From Promethearchaeota archaeon (lineage in GTDB: Archaea > Asgardarchaeota > Lokiarchaeia > Sigyniarchaeales > SOKP01), in contig JAHPZI010000028.1 in the NCBI GenBank assembly GCA_019058295.1, forward strand, positions 64,001 through 128,000: a DNA stretch of 64,000 bases, in the 5' to 3' direction. The position numbers and the translations under genes are program-made. Position 1 is the stretch's first letter. Each line of letters starts with the position of its first letter. The notes under the pieces were generated by a model. The model saw only the letters and a program-made list of their open reading frames with translations. It made no database searches and was not told the DNA's origin. Shown piece after piece: positions 2-6,520 of this stretch.

Positions 2-2437
2 AATAGATTTATAGTTCAATCAAATTCGAATAATATAACATTAGAGGCGACACTTGATTTTGATAATACAAATAATTGGTTATTCTGGTTTATTAAAGAA
101 GAACTTCCCAGCGTTTGGGATACGGAGTATAAACCAATATACGGATTGGAATGGGAAGAATTCTGGAATCTATTGCATCCTTATCTCCTATTTGGATTTG
201 ACTTTAATATAGCAACAAATATAAGCGATATTGGCAATATCCTTAATGCTGATATGTTTCTATTCAATTCAACTGATAATACTTGGATGAATATATCCCA
301 GTATATAAATGTGAAACAAGAAGATGAAACTTTAATTACTATTAGTGTTAGAGATCGTGAGGGTAAAGATGATATTTTATCATTAATGGGTGATGGGATG
401 CCAGTGGGGAATTATAACCTTACTGTCAAATTTAATTATACAAGTAATGATGGTGCTGTTTTTAACGTATCATTTAATGAATTCACTATAGATGTTTTAA
501 CATTAGATGAAATTTCTCCGCTTCAGATATTTGATCCCGGAATACAAGATTTATTTTATCCTATTAGTGCCACGGTGGATCCGAATACAGGAGAAACAAT
601 CGGGAATCCAGATTTAGATGCATTGGAATTAAATGATGGTAATTACTTTATAGCCAATTCTATAGATGATAATCTCACAATTGAATTTGAATTTAACTTA
701 GTTCCCTATTTGAACAATTCATTATGGACTATGGACGAATATGAATACCAATATGTCTATCCAAATCCCACGATTCCTGAAATGACTTTAAGGCTGAGTT
801 CTAAGGTTAGTATAAAGGGAAATTCTTCGGTGCAAAATAATTTAACTACTGCTGTTTTAGAAATTTATGTACCTGAAGAAATGGAATGGTATCCAGTGTG
901 GTTCGAAGATTTATTGGCTCATGAAAATGAGTTTCAAATACCTGCCAGTGTAAATGTTACAAGCTCTTTGTTTATTTTACAAATGACCAACTCTTCTTAT
1001 CAAAAAAATTCTCTTAAATTTCGGTTGAGATATGAATGGAATGAAGCTCAAACACCCCCTCCCGGAGGTTTTAATGTTACTATTGATGAATTTAGTTTCG
1101 ATATCACCGTTCAAAATGCAAAATCCTCTGATTTTTCTTCTTTGATAGGATTCGGCTTAAATAATGATGCGATAAAGCCCTCCGATATTTCCATGGAAGT
1201 TCAGGGTACCAGTGTGGCAGATGATGGTACATGGAGTGGTGATATTGCTAATGGTATTCCCAACTCAGATGGATATTTTGAATTTAACATAACATCGCGA
1301 TGGGAAGCAGTTAGTTTTAACGTGACAATAACGTATGACGTATTTAAATACCTAATTGAAATAGATTTCAAAGATGATTTTGAAGAGCAATATATGACTG
1401 GAACAGAATATTTTACTATAGAGGTAACTAATAGTATTGGTCAACCGATCTCAGGTCTAGAAATAATTTTTGAATTGATCGATGCAGATGATAAAGTAAT
1501 CGATGAAGACACAGATATTACTGATTTGGATGGAGAAGCAACGGGTTCTCTAGAAATGGATGAGATAGGGGATGGCTTTTATGTTAAAGTCAGTTATGAG
1601 CAAGTTGGAATATATGCAAGTGAAGATAAAGAATCCGATGAATTTAGGGTGGTTGATGAATTTACAATATTTATGGATAATTTTCTACTATTATTGCCAT
1701 ATATTCTTATTGGATTGGCAGCACTTTTTACATTTATAGCCCTCCGGCATCGAAAGTTAAGCAAATTGCGAGAATTCTGGGAGGAAGAATCTATAGTTTT
1801 AGAAGACTTGTTAAAAATTTCACACATCATGATCATACATAAAGATACGGGATTAACTCTTTATAGTAAGCAAACTTCTATGGAACTCGATTCGGATTTA
1901 ATAAGTGGATTTTTAACTGCCATTTCACAATTTAGAAGCGAAATTAAAAAACCTGTTGATGATTTTGACATAAGTACAGGATTTGAGATGGATTATCACG
2001 ACTTTAAAATTGATATAGTGGATGGCAAATATATACGAACTGCGTTAATTTTAGAAGGAATCCCATCCGAACAATTAAAAAAAAATCAGGAAATGTTTAC
2101 AAATAGTTTTGAAACAAAATTTAGCTCATTATTAGTGGATTTTACAGGAGATGTCAAGCCATTCAGAGAAACTGACAATTTAATTGAGAGATTTTTCAAT
2201 ATTTCTCTGATGTATCCATTTCAATTAGGTTCGAATTGGAAATCAGCAAAATTAAAAAAATTAGAAACAGCTTTATTAGAAGTAGCCGAACAGATGCAAA
2301 AAGAGAGAAAATACTTCTTTATTTCCAATTTATTGAATTACGGACTAGCTGGACGGAAAGAATCAAAAAATCAAATCGTAAGTACTATACTCTCACTTAA
2401 ACGGAAAGATTTAATTGTTCCAATTGATATTGATTAA
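2..2437 (+). CDS. Large single-pass membrane protein with cytoplasmic longin-like domain (5'-truncated by the window)
   Basis: Frame is open from position 2, upstream of the TTG at 146. Acidic beta-rich ectodomain, one TM (LLLLPYILIGLAALFTFIAL) then RHRK, then HIMIIHKDTGLTLY...DSDLISGFLTAISQF typical of Asgard longin-like domains, and a possible C-terminal wHTH. Confidence 0.75.
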   Translation, partial: NRFIVQSNSNNITLEATLDFDNTNNWLFWFIKEELPSVWDTEYKPIYGLEWEEFWNLLHPYLLFGFDFNIATNISDIGNILNADMFLFNSTDNTWMNISQYINVKQEDETLITISVRDREGKDDILSLMGDGMPVGNYNLTVKFNYTSNDGAVFNVSFNEFTIDVLTLDEISPLQIFDPGIQDLFYPISATVDPNTGETIGNPDLDALELNDGNYFIANSIDDNLTIEFEFNLVPYLNNSLWTMDEYEYQYVYPNPTIPEMTLRLSSKVSIKGNSSVQNNLTTAVLEIYVPEEMEWYPVWFEDLLAHENEFQIPASVNVTSSLFILQMTNSSYQKNSLKFRLRYEWNEAQTPPPGGFNVTIDEFSFDITVQNAKSSDFSSLIGFGLNNDAIKPSDISMEVQGTSVADDGTWSGDIANGIPNSDGYFEFNITSRWEAVSFNVTITYDVFKYLIEIDFKDDFEEQYMTGTEYFTIEVTNSIGQPISGLEIIFELIDADDKVIDEDTDITDLDGEATGSLEMDEIGDGFYVKVSYEQVGIYASEDKESDEFRVVDEFTIFMDNFLLLLPYILIGLAALFTFIALRHRKLSKLREFWEEESIVLEDLLKISHIMIIHKDTGLTLYSKQTSMELDSDLISGFLTAISQFRSEIKKPVDDFDISTGFEMDYHDFKIDIVDGKYIRTALILEGIPSEQLKKNQEMFTNSFETKFSSLLVDFTGDVKPFRETDNLIERFFNISLMYPFQLGSNWKSAKLKKLETALLEVAEQMQKERKYFFISNLLNYGLAGRKESKNQIVSTILSLKRKDLIVPIDID

Positions 2438-2474: not shown

Positions 2475-3287
2475 ATGATTGATAAAAAAAGGAAATTTTG
2501 GACAGTTGGACAAATAGATGCTACTGGGGTAAGAGGCCCTCATGAAAAAGAACTTGAAGATATTAGCAATGCTAAGTGTCCTCTTTTCATCAACATTAAT
2601 ATGAATGTTCTACAAAAAATTGTAAAAGAGAGTCTTGGTGGTAAAATCGAAAATATTGGATTTGATGAAGACTGGACTATTACTATAGAGTTTTTTCCTG
2701 AAGTAAATATCCATATGGCATATTCTTATTTTGGAGATGAATTTGGGGATGGTATTGAAGCAGAATTTAAATTTTATTTTTCTGGAGAGCATGTTACATT
2801 GGTTCCGGGTGAAGATAGTGCAACTTACATCGACATAGTTATGGATTTTATAGAGAGATTACTAAAAAATAAAGAACCATTTGAGAAGGACTATGATAAA
2901 AAGACAGAACTTATGGAAAAAGTTCTTATCCAGAGGGAAAAACCATTTGAAGTCCTAAAAGAAGGGGAAGGAAACAAATTAGCAGAATTCTTGGGTGCTA
3001 AAGTATGGAAAACCTCTGAGGGCTGGAGAATTAAAAAAGAATTCTTTCCGAAAATGTTTGCTGAAATTACATGGAATAAAGAAAAAGGACTTAATATATC
3101 TTTTTCAGGGGATAATCTTAATAATATGAGTAGTTATCATGCAGAATTCTTAGGGATTTTCATAATAAACCATCTCCTAAGATTTATAACAATCCATAAT
3201 GAAAATGAAGATCTGCCTGATATCTGCTACATAATGTTTTCACGAATGTTTACAAAAGCTAAAGGTTGGGAGCATAGGAGAAGGTAG
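2475..3287 (+). CDS. Hypothetical protein with two DUF3786-like repeats
   Basis: ATG at 2475 preferred over TTG at 2415. Internal duplication WTITIEFFPEV...FYFSGE / WRIKKEFFPKM...ISFSGD; the FP..GDEF..F..ED pattern resembles DUF3786. Confidence 0.55.
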   Translation: MIDKKRKFWTVGQIDATGVRGPHEKELEDISNAKCPLFININMNVLQKIVKESLGGKIENIGFDEDWTITIEFFPEVNIHMAYSYFGDEFGDGIEAEFKFYFSGEHVTLVPGEDSATYIDIVMDFIERLLKNKEPFEKDYDKKTELMEKVLIQREKPFEVLKEGEGNKLAEFLGAKVWKTSEGWRIKKEFFPKMFAEITWNKEKGLNISFSGDNLNNMSSYHAEFLGIFIINHLLRFITIHNENEDLPDICYIMFSRMFTKAKGWEHRRR

Positions 3288-3326: not shown

Positions 3327-3887
3327 TTAAATAATAGCTGTCCAAAATACAGATCTTCCCTTTTTTTCTGTTCGCTTAATTCTTTGGGCATTTTCTAAAT
3401 TAGACATTAATTTCCAAATTTGTGAATTGCTTAATTTGAAATATCTCCGCAATTCTGGAGTTGACATCTCTGTGCCACTTAACAAATTTACGATTAATCT
3501 TTCAATTTCTTCTATTGTATCTTCATCAGAATCATCGGAGTCTGATTTCTCTTCATCAATAGTCTCCATCTCAGTTATAATTCTATTAGCAATTTTGCTT
3601 AGTTGTGTTATATTTCTTTCGATCCCTTGAGGTTTCATAAATAAACAGCAGAGTTCTAAATCCTTTGGAAAGGCAACAATGTAAAATTTGTCATATAATA
3701 TTGCTCTTGGCTTTTTTCCAACATTTCCTCCCCGGAAAGCTAGATAAAAGTTCATTGAGAAATCGTCTAAATTAACTAAATCTTTTGAAGTATTTTCGAA
3801 CTCCTTTTTCCATTTGAGAAATGGGCCGTCAATCATGTCAAAACCGATCAATGCGGCCCCAAATAATTCATTTTCGTTAAATTTCAC
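3327..3887 (-). CDS. uDENN/longin-like domain fused to a C-terminal winged HTH
   Basis: N-terminal ALIGFDMIDGP (uDENN-type F-D-x3-GP), acidic linker, C-terminal MSTPELRRYFKLSNSQIWKLMSNLE...KGRSVFW wHTH. GTG start with AGGAGTG upstream. Confidence 0.6.
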   Translation of the reverse strand: MKFNENELFGAALIGFDMIDGPFLKWKKEFENTSKDLVNLDDFSMNFYLAFRGGNVGKKPRAILYDKFYIVAFPKDLELCCLFMKPQGIERNITQLSKIANRIITEMETIDEEKSDSDDSDEDTIEEIERLIVNLLSGTEMSTPELRRYFKLSNSQIWKLMSNLENAQRIKRTEKKGRSVFWTAII

Positions 3888-3903
3888 TTTCTTTTACACT
3901 CCT

Positions 3904-4464
3904 TTATTCTATCATATAATTTAAATCTTCTTTAAGAATATTCATAGATTCTTTTAAACTTCTTCTTATAAACACTTGATTTAATTCTTTTTTAATAATA
4001 TCGATTAATTTTTTCCGTTCGGACGATTCAATCGCTGTTAAACCGTAAGTCTTTACTTTGAGTATATCCTCAACTCTTTTTGCTTCCATTCTGCCATATT
4101 CCTTACATAAATCTTGTTTGTTCGCAATAGCAATTATGGGACAATCTTTTTCTACAATATTACTTGTGAACTCAATAAATCTTCGTGAATTTAATACATT
4201 GCGAGGACTAGAATCAGTTACTACTAATACAAGATCAGAACCTGCAAGATAATCATCTAAATAAGTTAGATAAGATGTTTGGCCTCCAAAATCCCAAACT
4301 CTTAAAGAAAACTGATCGAATTTAACCGTTTTCAAATCAAACCCTTGTGTGGGGATATAAAGTCTGTCTTTTTTTTCTATATTCTCCAATAAAAGTTTCA
4401 GAATGGTGGTTTTGCCCGTAGCGGGATGTCCAATTATCGATATTTTAACTAAATCGTTTAACAT
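3904..4464 (-). CDS. Small GTPase, Arf/Ras superfamily
   Basis: G1 GHPATGKT, G2 PTQG, G3 WDFGGQ, G4 NKQD, G5-like TA. Confidence 0.93.
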   Translation of the reverse strand: MLNDLVKISIIGHPATGKTTILKLLLENIEKKDRLYIPTQGFDLKTVKFDQFSLRVWDFGGQTSYLTYLDDYLAGSDLVLVVTDSSPRNVLNSRRFIEFTSNIVEKDCPIIAIANKQDLCKEYGRMEAKRVEDILKVKTYGLTAIESSERKKLIDIIKKELNQVFIRRSLKESMNILKEDLNYMIE

Positions 4465-4639
4465 TTCTATTCTAAAATGATTATTTAATTAATGAACAAA
4501 GAGAATTTGTGAATATTAAACTCGATCTTATCTGTGTAATATTTCTTTAGATCTCGTTTAAAAGATTCCCATAATGATTAAGTAATTATAATAAGTTGTT
4601 TAAAAAATTATAAATAATTGAAAGAATTTTAAAAAACAT

Positions 4640-5719
4640 ATGGAGGATAATAAACGAAGAGATTTGGCAAATAAATCCTTTGGCAATATTATTTCAGATG
4701 GATTTAATCTTTTTAAGAAATGTTATTGGAAATTGCTGCTACCAATGGCTTCTTTTTATATCATATATCTAATTATCAAAGTATTTCTATTAGCAGACTT
4801 ATATTTTTTATCTTACCGATTAGAAATAGAATATATTCAAATAGATCCTGAAAATGTATCTGAAGCTGATTATGATAGAATACTATTAATCGCGTTTATC
4901 GAACTTCTAATATACTTTCTAGATTTTTTGATAAGAGCAATTTTTACTGTTATAGCAATGTGCTCCGTAAGTCTTTTTGTTTATAAAAAGTATATGAATG
5001 AAGAAGTTAATTTTCTTAATCAATTTAAAAAGGCATTTAACCCAAAGATGTTACTAGTAATAATTTTAATCGGAATATGCATACCTTTAAGCATTTGGAT
5101 CTTAATGATCCCAGGACTTATCATTTTTGGAAGATATATATTTACAGTTTATACTTATAACATGGAAAATACAGAAGAAGGTACAGAAGTAATACAGAAG
5201 AAAAATCTAATTTCGAAGGCACAATTAATTTCTAAAGGTTCATTTTTGAAAATTTTTGCTATTTTTCTTATTACTATATTAATTACATTTATTATTCAAT
5301 TGGGATACTCAATTTTTCTATTATTTATTTGGAATGTGGATAATGCTACTTTATTATCATGGTATGATCCTAATAATAGAAATTATGGAATGATAATTCT
5401 TTATGAATTGATCTATGTTAATTTAGTAAATATAATCTTTATACCCTTGTTTATTTGTTTAATAACCCCCTTATTCGCAAGTTGTAAGGCACGATACGAA
5501 TTAGGAGAACTATATTATCCTCCAAAAAAACAGCCAGATTACAAACCATATCCTGCACAAGAACCTTATCCTGCACAACAATCTTATCCCGCACAGATGA
5601 ATACCTGGCAATCCAGAATTCAAGAAGGCCCTGGTATTTATTGTCCCTATTGTGGGCATAAAATTGATAATCCTATAAAATTCTGCCCTAGTTGTGGAGA
5701 ATCTATCGAATTTAAATAA
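4640..5719 (+). CDS. Multi-pass membrane protein with Pro/Gln-rich linker and C-terminal zinc ribbon
   Basis: About 6 hydrophobic segments; C-terminal CPYC...CPSC. Confidence 0.75.
   Translation: MEDNKRRDLANKSFGNIISDGFNLFKKCYWKLLLPMASFYIIYLIIKVFLLADLYFLSYRLEIEYIQIDPENVSEADYDRILLIAFIELLIYFLDFLIRAIFTVIAMCSVSLFVYKKYMNEEVNFLNQFKKAFNPKMLLVIILIGICIPLSIWILMIPGLIIFGRYIFTVYTYNMENTEEGTEVIQKKNLISKAQLISKGSFLKIFAIFLITILITFIIQLGYSIFLLFIWNVDNATLLSWYDPNNRNYGMIILYELIYVNLVNIIFIPLFICLITPLFASCKARYELGELYYPPKKQPDYKPYPAQEPYPAQQSYPAQMNTWQSRIQEGPGIYCPYCGHKIDNPIKFCPSCGESIEFK
5549..5596 (+). repeat. 18-bp coding tandem repeat (YPAQxx, about 2.7 copies)
   Basis: tatcctgcacaagaacct / tatcctgcacaacaatct / tatcccgcacag. 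Confidence 0.8.
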
Positions 5720-5737: not shown

Positions 5738-6520
5738 ATGTATTTCAACATCGAAAAAAAGATTGACTTAAACATTGATGATATTAATGATCCTGTCGTC
5801 TTGATAGGATGGCCTGGAATAGCTTTAGTCGCTAAATTAGCAATTTCTACAATTAAAGACGCGATTGACGCAGAATTATTTTTAAAAATAGAATATTTTG
5901 ATTTTCCCCCTAAAAGTACTGTTGAAGCTGGTTCATTAGATATTCCATCTGCTAAATTATATTATAAAAAAAGAAAAATTAACGATCTTTTTATATTAAC
6001 CGCAAATTTTCAACCTCAAACTCCAGAAGGCGTTTTTGAGTTCGCTAAAAGATTTTGCGAAGAAATGGACAAAATTTCAGGTGGAAAAATAAAAATGTAT
6101 CTATCTACTGGGGCCTTAATTTCGGATAATGTATCTGATAAACCTAAAGTTCATATATGTAGTACATCAAAGGATTTAATGCAATCTTTTTTAGAATTAG
6201 AAAATACTAAAATAATGGATGGTGGAATAATTGCAGGGGCAAATGGGATATTACCCGCTTATGCGGGTGCAAAAGGCTTCGCACCAGGAATTTGTCTGTT
6301 AGCTGAAACTATTCCTTTGCCAATGATGAGTTTAGACCCACGTGCCAGCAAAGCTTTAGTTAAGATATTAAAAAATTATTTTAAAATTGAAATGAATTTT
6401 GATGAATTAGATAAAAAAATTGATGAAATGAAAAATGTGTTCGAATCGTTTAAAAAACAAGCAGATTATTTTATGAAAGGTGCTCAGGAAGATCAAGGAC
6501 CAGATTCATATTTCCGATAA
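5738..6520 (+). CDS. PAC2-family proteasome assembly chaperone
   Basis: LIGWPGIALVAKLA, IAGANGIL, GICLLAET, DPRASKAL and C-terminal coiled helix. Confidence 0.85.
   Translation: MYFNIEKKIDLNIDDINDPVVLIGWPGIALVAKLAISTIKDAIDAELFLKIEYFDFPPKSTVEAGSLDIPSAKLYYKKRKINDLFILTANFQPQTPEGVFEFAKRFCEEMDKISGGKIKMYLSTGALISDNVSDKPKVHICSTSKDLMQSFLELENTKIMDGGIIAGANGILPAYAGAKGFAPGICLLAETIPLPMMSLDPRASKALVKILKNYFKIEMNFDELDKKIDEMKNVFESFKKQADYFMKGAQEDQGPDSYFR

Follow-up and report, generated by a model that had tools for sequence, protein, structure and literature searches.

An Arf-related GTPase paired with a longin–winged-helix protein in Lokiarchaeia: a possible route from GTPase to DNA

Could a small GTPase of an archaeon pass its signal to DNA? 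The question is raised by a locus in a 64,000-nucleotide (nt) stretch of DNA from a Promethearchaeota archaeon (Lokiarchaeia; Sigyniarchaeales; assembly GCA_019058295.1, contig JAHPZI010000028.1, positions 64,001 to 128,000), hereafter the window, in which the gene of an Arf-related GTPase is followed by the gene of a protein, here called X, that is predicted to join a longin-fold domain to a basic winged helix-turn-helix (wHTH) domain. The original prediction for this locus was a two-gene switch in which the state of the GTPase could control a DNA-binding protein. Altogether, our results lead us to favor, tentatively and a little short of calling it probable, a model whereby the two proteins form a dedicated GTPase–longin switch with the wHTH as its output, the palindrome in the promoter of the operon as its target, and autoregulation of the operon as its consequence. 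The binding of the GTPase to X, the dependence on its nucleotide state, and the binding of DNA by the wHTH are steps that we infer.

The gene pair and its conservation

The pair consists of the following features in the window.

3904–4464, minus strand: gene of the Arf-related small GTPase (P0002), 186 amino acids (aa), ATG start, TAA stop at 3904–3906.
3888–3903, minus strand: intergenic spacer of 16 nt with a Shine-Dalgarno-like AGGAG(TG) for X, reading AGGAGTGTAAAAGAAA.
3327–3887, minus strand: gene of protein X, 186 aa, GTG start.

In the window sequence, the GTPase gene comes first and X second, head to tail on the minus strand, and the anatomy first described, an intact GTPase followed after a 16-bp gap containing AGGAGTG by X, is what we find. 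The gap itself is the exception: in nearly all other species the stop codon of the GTPase gene and the start codon of X overlap (69 of 79 relatives, the overlap being 4 nt in 41 loci and 11 nt in 28), and GGAGG lies 8–12 nt ahead of the X start in relatives. The 16-nt gap arises because the stop of the window GTPase comes nine codons sooner than in its closest relatives (L003, 2077–2103, and L004), leaving 186 instead of 195 aa.

X is encoded on 117 contigs when one genome is taken per species (GTDB), and 80 loci were fetched. A GTPase orthologue is located directly upstream of X in every one of the 79 testable loci, the eightieth ending at a contig edge. Chance does not account for this pairing because the genome of the window, 3.2 Mb in size and 79% complete, contains no fewer than 56 matches to Arf-type GTPases and a single X gene, and yet the same two genes are adjacent each time. 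Judged by gene order and spacing, the GTPase gene and X are a conserved two-gene operon.

Because the neighborhood is syntenic within the family to which this genome belongs, the 79 loci are kin and not independent trials, and distant relatives in other gene contexts therefore provide the stronger evidence. A gene for an Arf-type GTPase precedes each of the X homologues P0128 (40% identity), P0133 (37%), P0135 (35%), and P0149 (29%), at a spacing between a 21-nt gap and a 41-nt overlap. In the window's genome, the best match of these four complete GTPases is the window GTPase, ahead of at least 55 paralogues, by moderate margins in bits (108 vs 102, 132 vs 104, 126 vs 102, and 127 vs 108). Two further homologues, P0136 and P0146, have an overlapping truncated frame just ahead of their start; the frame before P0136 reads as a GTPase C-terminus that again matches the window GTPase best, while the fragment before P0146 matches other Arf-type paralogues and is too short to assign. 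Conservation of the pair in Asgard genomes, a check suggested together with the original prediction, thus came out in its favor, in the close loci as well as in distant homologues.

These comparisons bear on the explanation that GTPase and X do not cooperate at all, their adjacency reflecting synteny or operon inertia and X being a small regulator with a ligand-sensing α/β domain. The entirely syntenic neighborhood fits such an explanation, as do the IclR-type effector domains among the structural matches of the X N-domain (Z 7.5–6.9). The pair is, however, kept where the neighbors (L088, L089) or the C-terminal domain of X (P0149, which retains its GTPase neighbor) differ, the GTPases of the divergent loci are orthologous to the window GTPase, the stop and start codons overlap, and controls scored 0.00–0.01 in a complex prediction in which the pair scored 0.55 (see below); we regard mere neighborhood as very improbable.

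The N-domain of X is present in 162 of 400 Asgard genomes, including 120 of the 134 in the window's own family, where it is nearly always single copy; it is patchy in other Asgard classes, and the range of X is confined to Asgard archaea. In one divergent lineage, represented by P0146 (L087) and P0149 (L088:2995–4061), a longin-like N-domain is joined to another C-terminal domain of ~80 aa, which has no Pfam match; a helix-hairpin-helix assignment for it, considered on account of a GLGPKR-like stretch, was dropped when Pfam gave nothing. At the position of the catalytic Gln, the GTPase of L088 has a His (WDLAGH). In Baldrarchaeia (L092–L094), the N-domain is a stand-alone protein of 107 aa next to a divergently transcribed gene for a PF0610-like wHTH–zinc-ribbon protein, and the longin and HTH parts appear, from the gene arrangement, to be divided between two genes. 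In L093, an Arf/Rag-like GTPase of 288 aa is encoded ~2.5 kb away.

The GTPase itself is best matched by the Pfam family Arf (PF00025; 72.2 bits against a cut-off of 22.3), and its closest solved relatives in a PDB sequence search are Arl3 (E 1.8e-16), Arf1, and Arl1/2. All of G1–G5 are intact and invariant in 24 GTPase orthologues (G12-x4-G17-K18-T19, P38-T39-x-G41, W57-D58-x2-G61-Q62, N115-K116-Q117-D118, and T143-A144-I145), and the Arf-type signatures PTxGF and WDxGGQ are present. Between the Thr of switch I and the Asp of G3 lie 19 residues, a spacing that we take to be that of T48–D67 in Arf1. Because only six residues precede strand 1 (~10 in relatives), there is no room for an N-terminal amphipathic helix, and we therefore describe the protein as Arf-related and not as a canonical membrane-switch Arf.

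The longin-fold domain and its Gly-Pro hairpin

What might X offer to such a GTPase? The N-terminal part of X comprises two features.

3564–3887, minus strand: longin-fold domain, X residues 1–108, from an AlphaFold2 model and structural matches.
3822–3842, minus strand: F16-D17-x3-G21-P22 motif at the β1–β2 hairpin, from its invariance in the alignment A2.

X is without a family name: all 482 close relatives (72–95% identity) are annotated as ‘hypothetical’, and only 29 clusters came up when 1.84 billion cluster representatives were searched exhaustively with a profile. No Pfam or NCBIfam family covers the N-domain, and a PDB sequence search with the profile of a shallow X alignment (A1) gave chance-level matches only (LmuA, E 0.034; Lrs14-like, E 0.038). 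A fold of full-length X on A1 was unusable for the N-domain, with a predicted local distance difference test (pLDDT) score of ~50, and was replaced by a fold on A2, a diverse N-domain alignment of 24 sequences reaching down to 29% identity. The AlphaFold2 model on A2 has a pLDDT of 79.9 and a predicted template modeling (pTM) score of 0.73, and it comprises β1 (8–17), β2 (21–29), a helix (40–50), β3–β5 (61–84), and a second helix (90–113). This order, β-β-α-β-β-β-α without an N-terminal helix, is that of longins, with the usual third helix absent from the model.

In comparisons with VIA-align, the best match of the N-domain is a solved Lokiarchaeial longin (8yqg_B; Z 10.3, root-mean-square deviation 3.1 Å over 108 residues), followed by the VAMP7 longin (Z 9.9), MglB (9.4), and TRAPP longins (8.9–9.3), with LAMTOR and Asgard Roadblock proteins at Z 8.5–9.3; LAMTOR, NPRL2/3, and C9orf72-SMCR8 entries are among the Foldseek matches. 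At the level of a predicted model, placement of the N-domain in the longin/Roadblock superfamily is secure; we prefer ‘longin’ over ‘Roadblock’ because of the order of strands and helices, the Z-scores of Roadblock proteins (8.7–9.4) being nearly as high. Of the ‘uDENN/longin’ domain originally proposed, the longin part is consistent with this fold, while the uDENN part finds neither a Pfam uDENN match nor a DENN module to support it.

The F-D-x3-G-P start that had been noticed in X is present at the N-terminus (VKFNENELFGAALIGFDMIDGP) as F16-D17-M-I-D-G21-P22, and these four motif residues, together with Y48, F51, G54, P60, and F68, are invariant in all sequences of A2. In the model, β2 begins at residue 21, placing G21-P22 right at the start of strand 2. 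A GP motif at this position has been described as a hallmark of the catalytic longins of FLCN, NPRL2, SMCR8, and C9orf72, is absent in adaptins, TRAPP subunits, and DENND proteins, is present in some Asgard longins, and has been proposed to be tied to GTPase-activating protein (GAP) activity (PMC12290439). In the numbering of the same study, C9orf72 has an essential W33-D34 followed by G38-P39, and the spacing aromatic-Asp-x3-Gly-Pro is identical to that of F16-D17/G21-P22 in X. Because DENND proteins lack the GP motif (PMC12290439) and X lacks a DENN module, ‘uDENN’, if meant as in DENND proteins, is a misnomer. As far as conservation and position can tell, the motif itself is real and meaningful.

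Does the motif make X a GAP of the FLCN type? No arginine is invariant among the 24 N-domains of A2, R52 being invariant and R61 nearly so within the close X family only. In the β4–β5 loop, which we take to be the place of the NPRL2 arginine finger, the residue beside the GP hairpin is K75 in X and K, R, Q, N, S, H, D, or E in relatives. The Pfam families Folliculin, NPR2, C9orf72-like, and uDENN do not match X or any of the 24 N-domains at E up to 10; a search of the window's genome with the NPR2 and Folliculin models also gave no match, and it is uninformative because its controls were silent too. We place X outside the FLCN-type family because of the missing invariant arginine, the variable K75 position, the missing profile matches, and the lower fold scores of FLCN and Npr2/3. 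X would thus resemble a longin GTPase platform in its manner of working, and identity as an FLCN-type GAP is unsupported by profiles or arginine.

Regulating the GTPase might also be all that X does. In this explanation, X is purely a GAP, a guanine nucleotide exchange factor (GEF), or a platform that stabilizes one nucleotide state, and its winged helix serves protein contacts (dimerization, docking of a further partner, or a part in the exchange or hydrolysis machinery) without binding DNA. Roadblock/longin platforms are indeed classical GAPs and GEFs, as in MglB, TRAPP, Mon1-Ccz1, and FLCN-FNIP (PMC10933270); in the actinobacterial conservon, the Roadblock protein is reported to be a GAP and the HTH-bearing DUF742 protein a GEF of the adjacent GTPase (PMC9769811, PMC11343762). 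The proposed link of the GP motif to GAP activity points in the same direction. The absence of a family-wide arginine and the variation at the K75 position point away from it, and the properties of the winged helix weigh on both sides.

The winged helix, the promoter palindrome, and a possible output

The rest of X is divided as follows.

3525–3563, minus strand: acidic, probably disordered linker, X residues 109–121 (pLDDT <50 at residues 109–120).
3330–3524, minus strand: basic wHTH, X residues 122–186 (pLDDT 80–90).

Both had been anticipated in the original prediction. The acidic stretch as such extends over approximately residues 106–129 (EMETIDEEKSDSDDSDEDTIEEIE), and its length and sequence differ among X orthologues while it is acidic in every one; residues 122–186 are modeled as a winged helix. 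Over 34 orthologues, the wHTH has an isoelectric point of 10.05 and a net charge of +5.9, as opposed to about −7.4 for the N-terminal part plus linker. Invariant residues are R172, G177, and R178 in the wing and W158 and K159 in helix 3, and near-invariance is seen at K175/K176 of the wing and at S153, N154, and Q156 of helix 3.

The top VIA-align matches of the wHTH are PH1932 (Z 10.7) and DNA-bound NolR (10.5), then regulators of MarR, ArsR, and IclR types, with regulators continuing down to 8.6. Protein-binding winged helices (ESCRT-II, cullin WHB, and APC2) are among the matches at Z 8.9, in line with the explanation that X only regulates its GTPase, and the fold of the model by itself leaves a DNA-binding or a protein-binding role undecided. 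Against this explanation stand the strongly basic character of the domain, its invariant basic wing, and its homology to HTH families of transcription factors, the divergent relatives P0133, P0135, and P0136 being above the Pfam cut-offs of HTH_DeoR, HTH_11, and HTH_5; in addition, neither X nor its relatives match DUF742 in Pfam at E up to 1, and the promoter contains a conserved palindrome. With platform and winged helix considered together, we take X as solely a GTPase regulator to be a serious but unlikely alternative.

The winged helix may also bind another nucleic acid, RNA or an unusual DNA structure, with the pair then having its role in the biology of RNA or chromatin. Scores equal to those of the regulators are reached by Z-alpha domains in complex with Z-DNA (Z 10.5 and 10.3) and by the winged helix of SelB on SECIS RNA (Z 10.3), and the domain of X is basic. 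The sequence matches of family members are nevertheless to ArsR, DeoR, and HTH_11 regulator families, and a palindrome fixed in position beside a TATA-like box looks like an operator, making this alternative improbable in our view.

The two promoter elements are located upstream of the GTPase gene.

4524–4542, minus strand: candidate operator, reading ATATTACACAGATAAGATC, a degenerate version of ATAATAT-N4-ATATTATC, the consensus of the family.
4512–4523, minus strand: box resembling a TATA element and B recognition element (TATA/BRE-like), GAGTTTAATATT, family consensus nAGATTCATATT, directly downstream of the palindrome.

In 60 of 72 loci, the composite of ATAATAT-N4-ATATTATC and then nAGATTCATATT starts 82–100 nt ahead of the GTPase start. 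When both strands of 784 kb of loci were considered, 63 palindrome sites of at least 17 bits were found, all of them at most 200 nt ahead of the GTPase gene, on its upstream side. In the window's genome, the window promoter is the best match of the composite motif (27.4 bits; next 19.0). Because 12-mers of the TATA/BRE-like type recur at many places in the genome, we consider this box a generic promoter element. Of the divergent loci, L083 has a TAATAT-N4-ATATTA palindrome starting at −81 and L084 a degenerate form; no palindrome was seen in L088, a single case, where another domain replaces the wHTH.

The palindrome alone has other good matches in the genome, of which only one is suggestive, and no regulon can be defined. 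At this suggestive site, GTAATACCGCCATATTAT lies 79 nt upstream of the gene of a paralogous GTPase (C6:116600–117150; L095:3089–3650), the same distance from the start as in the window promoter. The C6 paralogue, with 160 aa and 36% identity, is among the closest, a C10 paralogue (39%) scoring slightly higher, and no X-like gene is located downstream of it. The window GTPase gene and the C6 paralogue may share a regulator.

Whether the GTPase could dock on X was addressed by a complex prediction that combined the GTPase, GTP, and Mg with two X N-domains, alongside three controls. Agreement between runs was at least 80% of contacts, with partner pLDDT of at least 83, and the score was 0.55 as compared with 0.01 for the best control. 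Of 80 solved complexes, 58 reach the mark used, as do 2 of 110 mismatched pairs; among those that reach it at scores up to 0.60 are only 7 of the 80 solved complexes, yet both passing mismatches. Complex modeling of the pair, likewise suggested with the original prediction, therefore separates it from the controls while placing it in the band of weak support. Complexes of similar type have already been solved, namely MglA–MglB, Rab–TRAPP, Rag–Ragulator, and Arf with the C9orf72-SMCR8-WDR41 complex (CSW), and because of these the pass may reflect general likeness and not this GTPase and X as a pair.

In our model, GTPase and X would be made together from one transcript by translational coupling, and the GTPase would dock on the longin domains of X, which probably form a dimeric platform, such that the F-D-x3-G-P hairpins face the nucleotide pocket as in MglA–MglB, Rab–TRAPP, and Arf–C9orf72/SMCR8. 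The nucleotide state of the GTPase would then control the access of the winged helix to DNA, perhaps by its release from the acidic linker, and the most likely target would be the conserved palindrome that adjoins the TATA-like box in the promoter of the operon itself, resulting in autoregulation. X may also alter the nucleotide state of the GTPase and, if so, would do this without an arginine finger of FLCN type. The basic wHTH, the membership of relatives in Pfam HTH families, and the promoter palindrome make a GTPase-to-DNA output plausible. It is tempting to speculate further that X is a GTPase-gated transcription factor in which a homodimeric, C9orf72-like platform frees the wHTH from a DNA-mimicking acidic linker and onto a palindromic operator; we consider this specific version doubtful. 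If true, a ‘eukaryotic’ Arf–longin module in Lokiarchaeia would signal to DNA and not to membranes, and X would represent, in simple prokaryotic form, the pocket found in the CSW, FLCN, and GATOR1 complexes.

Several observations weigh against the autoregulated switch. The palindrome model was trained on sites that it then finds, the window palindrome is degenerate (5 of 7 arm positions), and the helix-3 residues vary while the palindrome stays (SNSQ in the core family, SYWT in P0133). Because helix 3 differs between lineages that keep the palindrome, another factor could read it. The wHTH of the window X is below every Pfam cut-off (HTH_27, 18 bits vs 22.2), overall fold does not favor GAP longins (FLCN, Z 7.4; SEA complex, Z 7.2) over SNARE/TRAPP longins and Roadblock proteins, and the actinobacterial DUF742 HTH protein has been reported as a GEF and not as a transcription factor (PMC11343762). 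To these are added the band in which the complex score sits and the kinship of the 79 loci in a wholly syntenic neighborhood.

The pair matters beyond this locus. Asgard genomes encode both small GTPases and Roadblock/longin proteins by the dozen; in the cultured MK-D1, their genes are generally outside operons, which hinders the matching of one to the other (PMC10933270). It has been asked if the GP-motif Asgard longins have ArfR or Rag GTPases as partners (PMC12290439), and the present pair makes it directly testable because the two genes are conserved and coupled and encode small soluble proteins of 186 aa each. Binding of the wHTH to the promoter palindrome, if it occurs, would mean that the closest prokaryotic relatives of eukaryotes have connected a module of trafficking type to the regulation of genes.

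Surroundings of the pair and comparison with known systems

Two further genes of the neighborhood lie on the opposite strand.

2475–3287, plus strand: convergent neighbor, ~270 aa, nearly invariant N-terminus ...WTVGQIDATGVRGPHEKEL, located a short distance downstream of X in most of the 80 loci.
2–2437, plus strand: single-pass membrane protein, >811 aa, its frame running off the window edge, detected by tblastn in about half of the loci.

The convergent gene, for which the open reading frame list has a start 20 codons too early, at 2415, encodes a protein with weak likeness to DUF3786 (Pfam E 0.061; Atlas features 0.88). The membrane protein has a large Asn/Asp-rich ectodomain and a strongly conserved cytoplasmic tail of ~230 aa (DSDLISGFLxAISxF...FEMDY...; 74% mean column identity in alignment A3 of 21 species), for which Pfam and PDB sequence searches gave no match and Atlas features only uncharacterized Asgard clusters. 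The idea that this tail is a paralogue of the X longin domain is unsupported by profile comparison (hhalign probability 0.1). In most relatives (L005–L082), 2–3 kb of extra genes, ~2.5–3 kb upstream of the GTPase gene, separate the GTPase operon from homologues of the window genes at 4640–5719 and 5738–6520; because these two genes abut the operon in the window, a deletion or rearrangement in its lineage is likely.

Which known systems does the pair resemble? GTPase–Roadblock/longin modules are already known, as are NPRL2-like Asgard longins including fusions to prokaryotic signaling domains, Liu et al. having described NPRL2-like longins fused to two-component signaling domains. In the literature searched, we found no description of a longin–wHTH fusion paired with an Arf-type GTPase, nor of the conserved and translationally coupled combination of an Arf-related GTPase and a fusion of a GP-motif longin with a basic wHTH, together with a promoter palindrome.

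With regard to the GTPase, the closest counterparts are the Asgard ArfR GTPases (bioRxiv 10.1101/2024.02.28.582541, PMC11914678), with which it has the PTxGF and WDxGGQ signatures in common. In ArfR, an N-terminal amphipathic helix drives membrane binding, whereas the window GTPase has no such helix and carries a C-terminal helical extension in its place; the ArfR preprint has nothing on gene neighbors.

With the eukaryotic longin GAP complexes (C9orf72-SMCR8-WDR41, FLCN-FNIP, and the NPRL2-NPRL3 dimer of GATOR1) and the GP-motif Asgard longins (PMC12290439), X shares the longin fold and the GP motif at strand 2. The clients of the eukaryotic complexes are Arf- or Rag-type GTPases, and the neighbor of X is Arf-related. 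The eukaryotic proteins differ from X in that they have a DENN module where X has a wHTH after the longin, in that they have a conserved arginine finger for which X sequences offer no conserved equivalent, and in that they are heterodimeric while the X platform is probably a homodimer; their FLCN and Npr2/3 entries reach Z 7.1–7.4 against X, below SNARE/TRAPP longins and Roadblock proteins.

ArsR/MarR/DeoR regulators have in common with X the fold (Z about 10), the basic wing, and a palindrome in the regulator's own promoter, and divergent members of the X family, unlike the window X, reach membership at the level of Pfam. Their sensor, however, is a small-molecule or metal site, whereas that of X would be a longin platform paired with a GTPase.

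Finally, MglA–MglB and the actinobacterial conservon (CvnA-D/MfpB-E) place a GTPase gene beside genes for a Roadblock/longin-superfamily protein and an HTH protein (PMC11343762, PMC9769811). There, the Roadblock and HTH proteins are separate, whereas X joins both kinds in one chain; the GTPase is MglA- or CvnD-like and the partner has the Roadblock order, whereas here the GTPase is Arf-related and the order is that of longins, without an N-terminal helix; and the conservon includes DUF742 and a histidine kinase, whereas X has no detected DUF742 homology and the locus contains no kinase gene. X would thus work like a module of the conservon/MglAB type without, by sequence, being a member of it.

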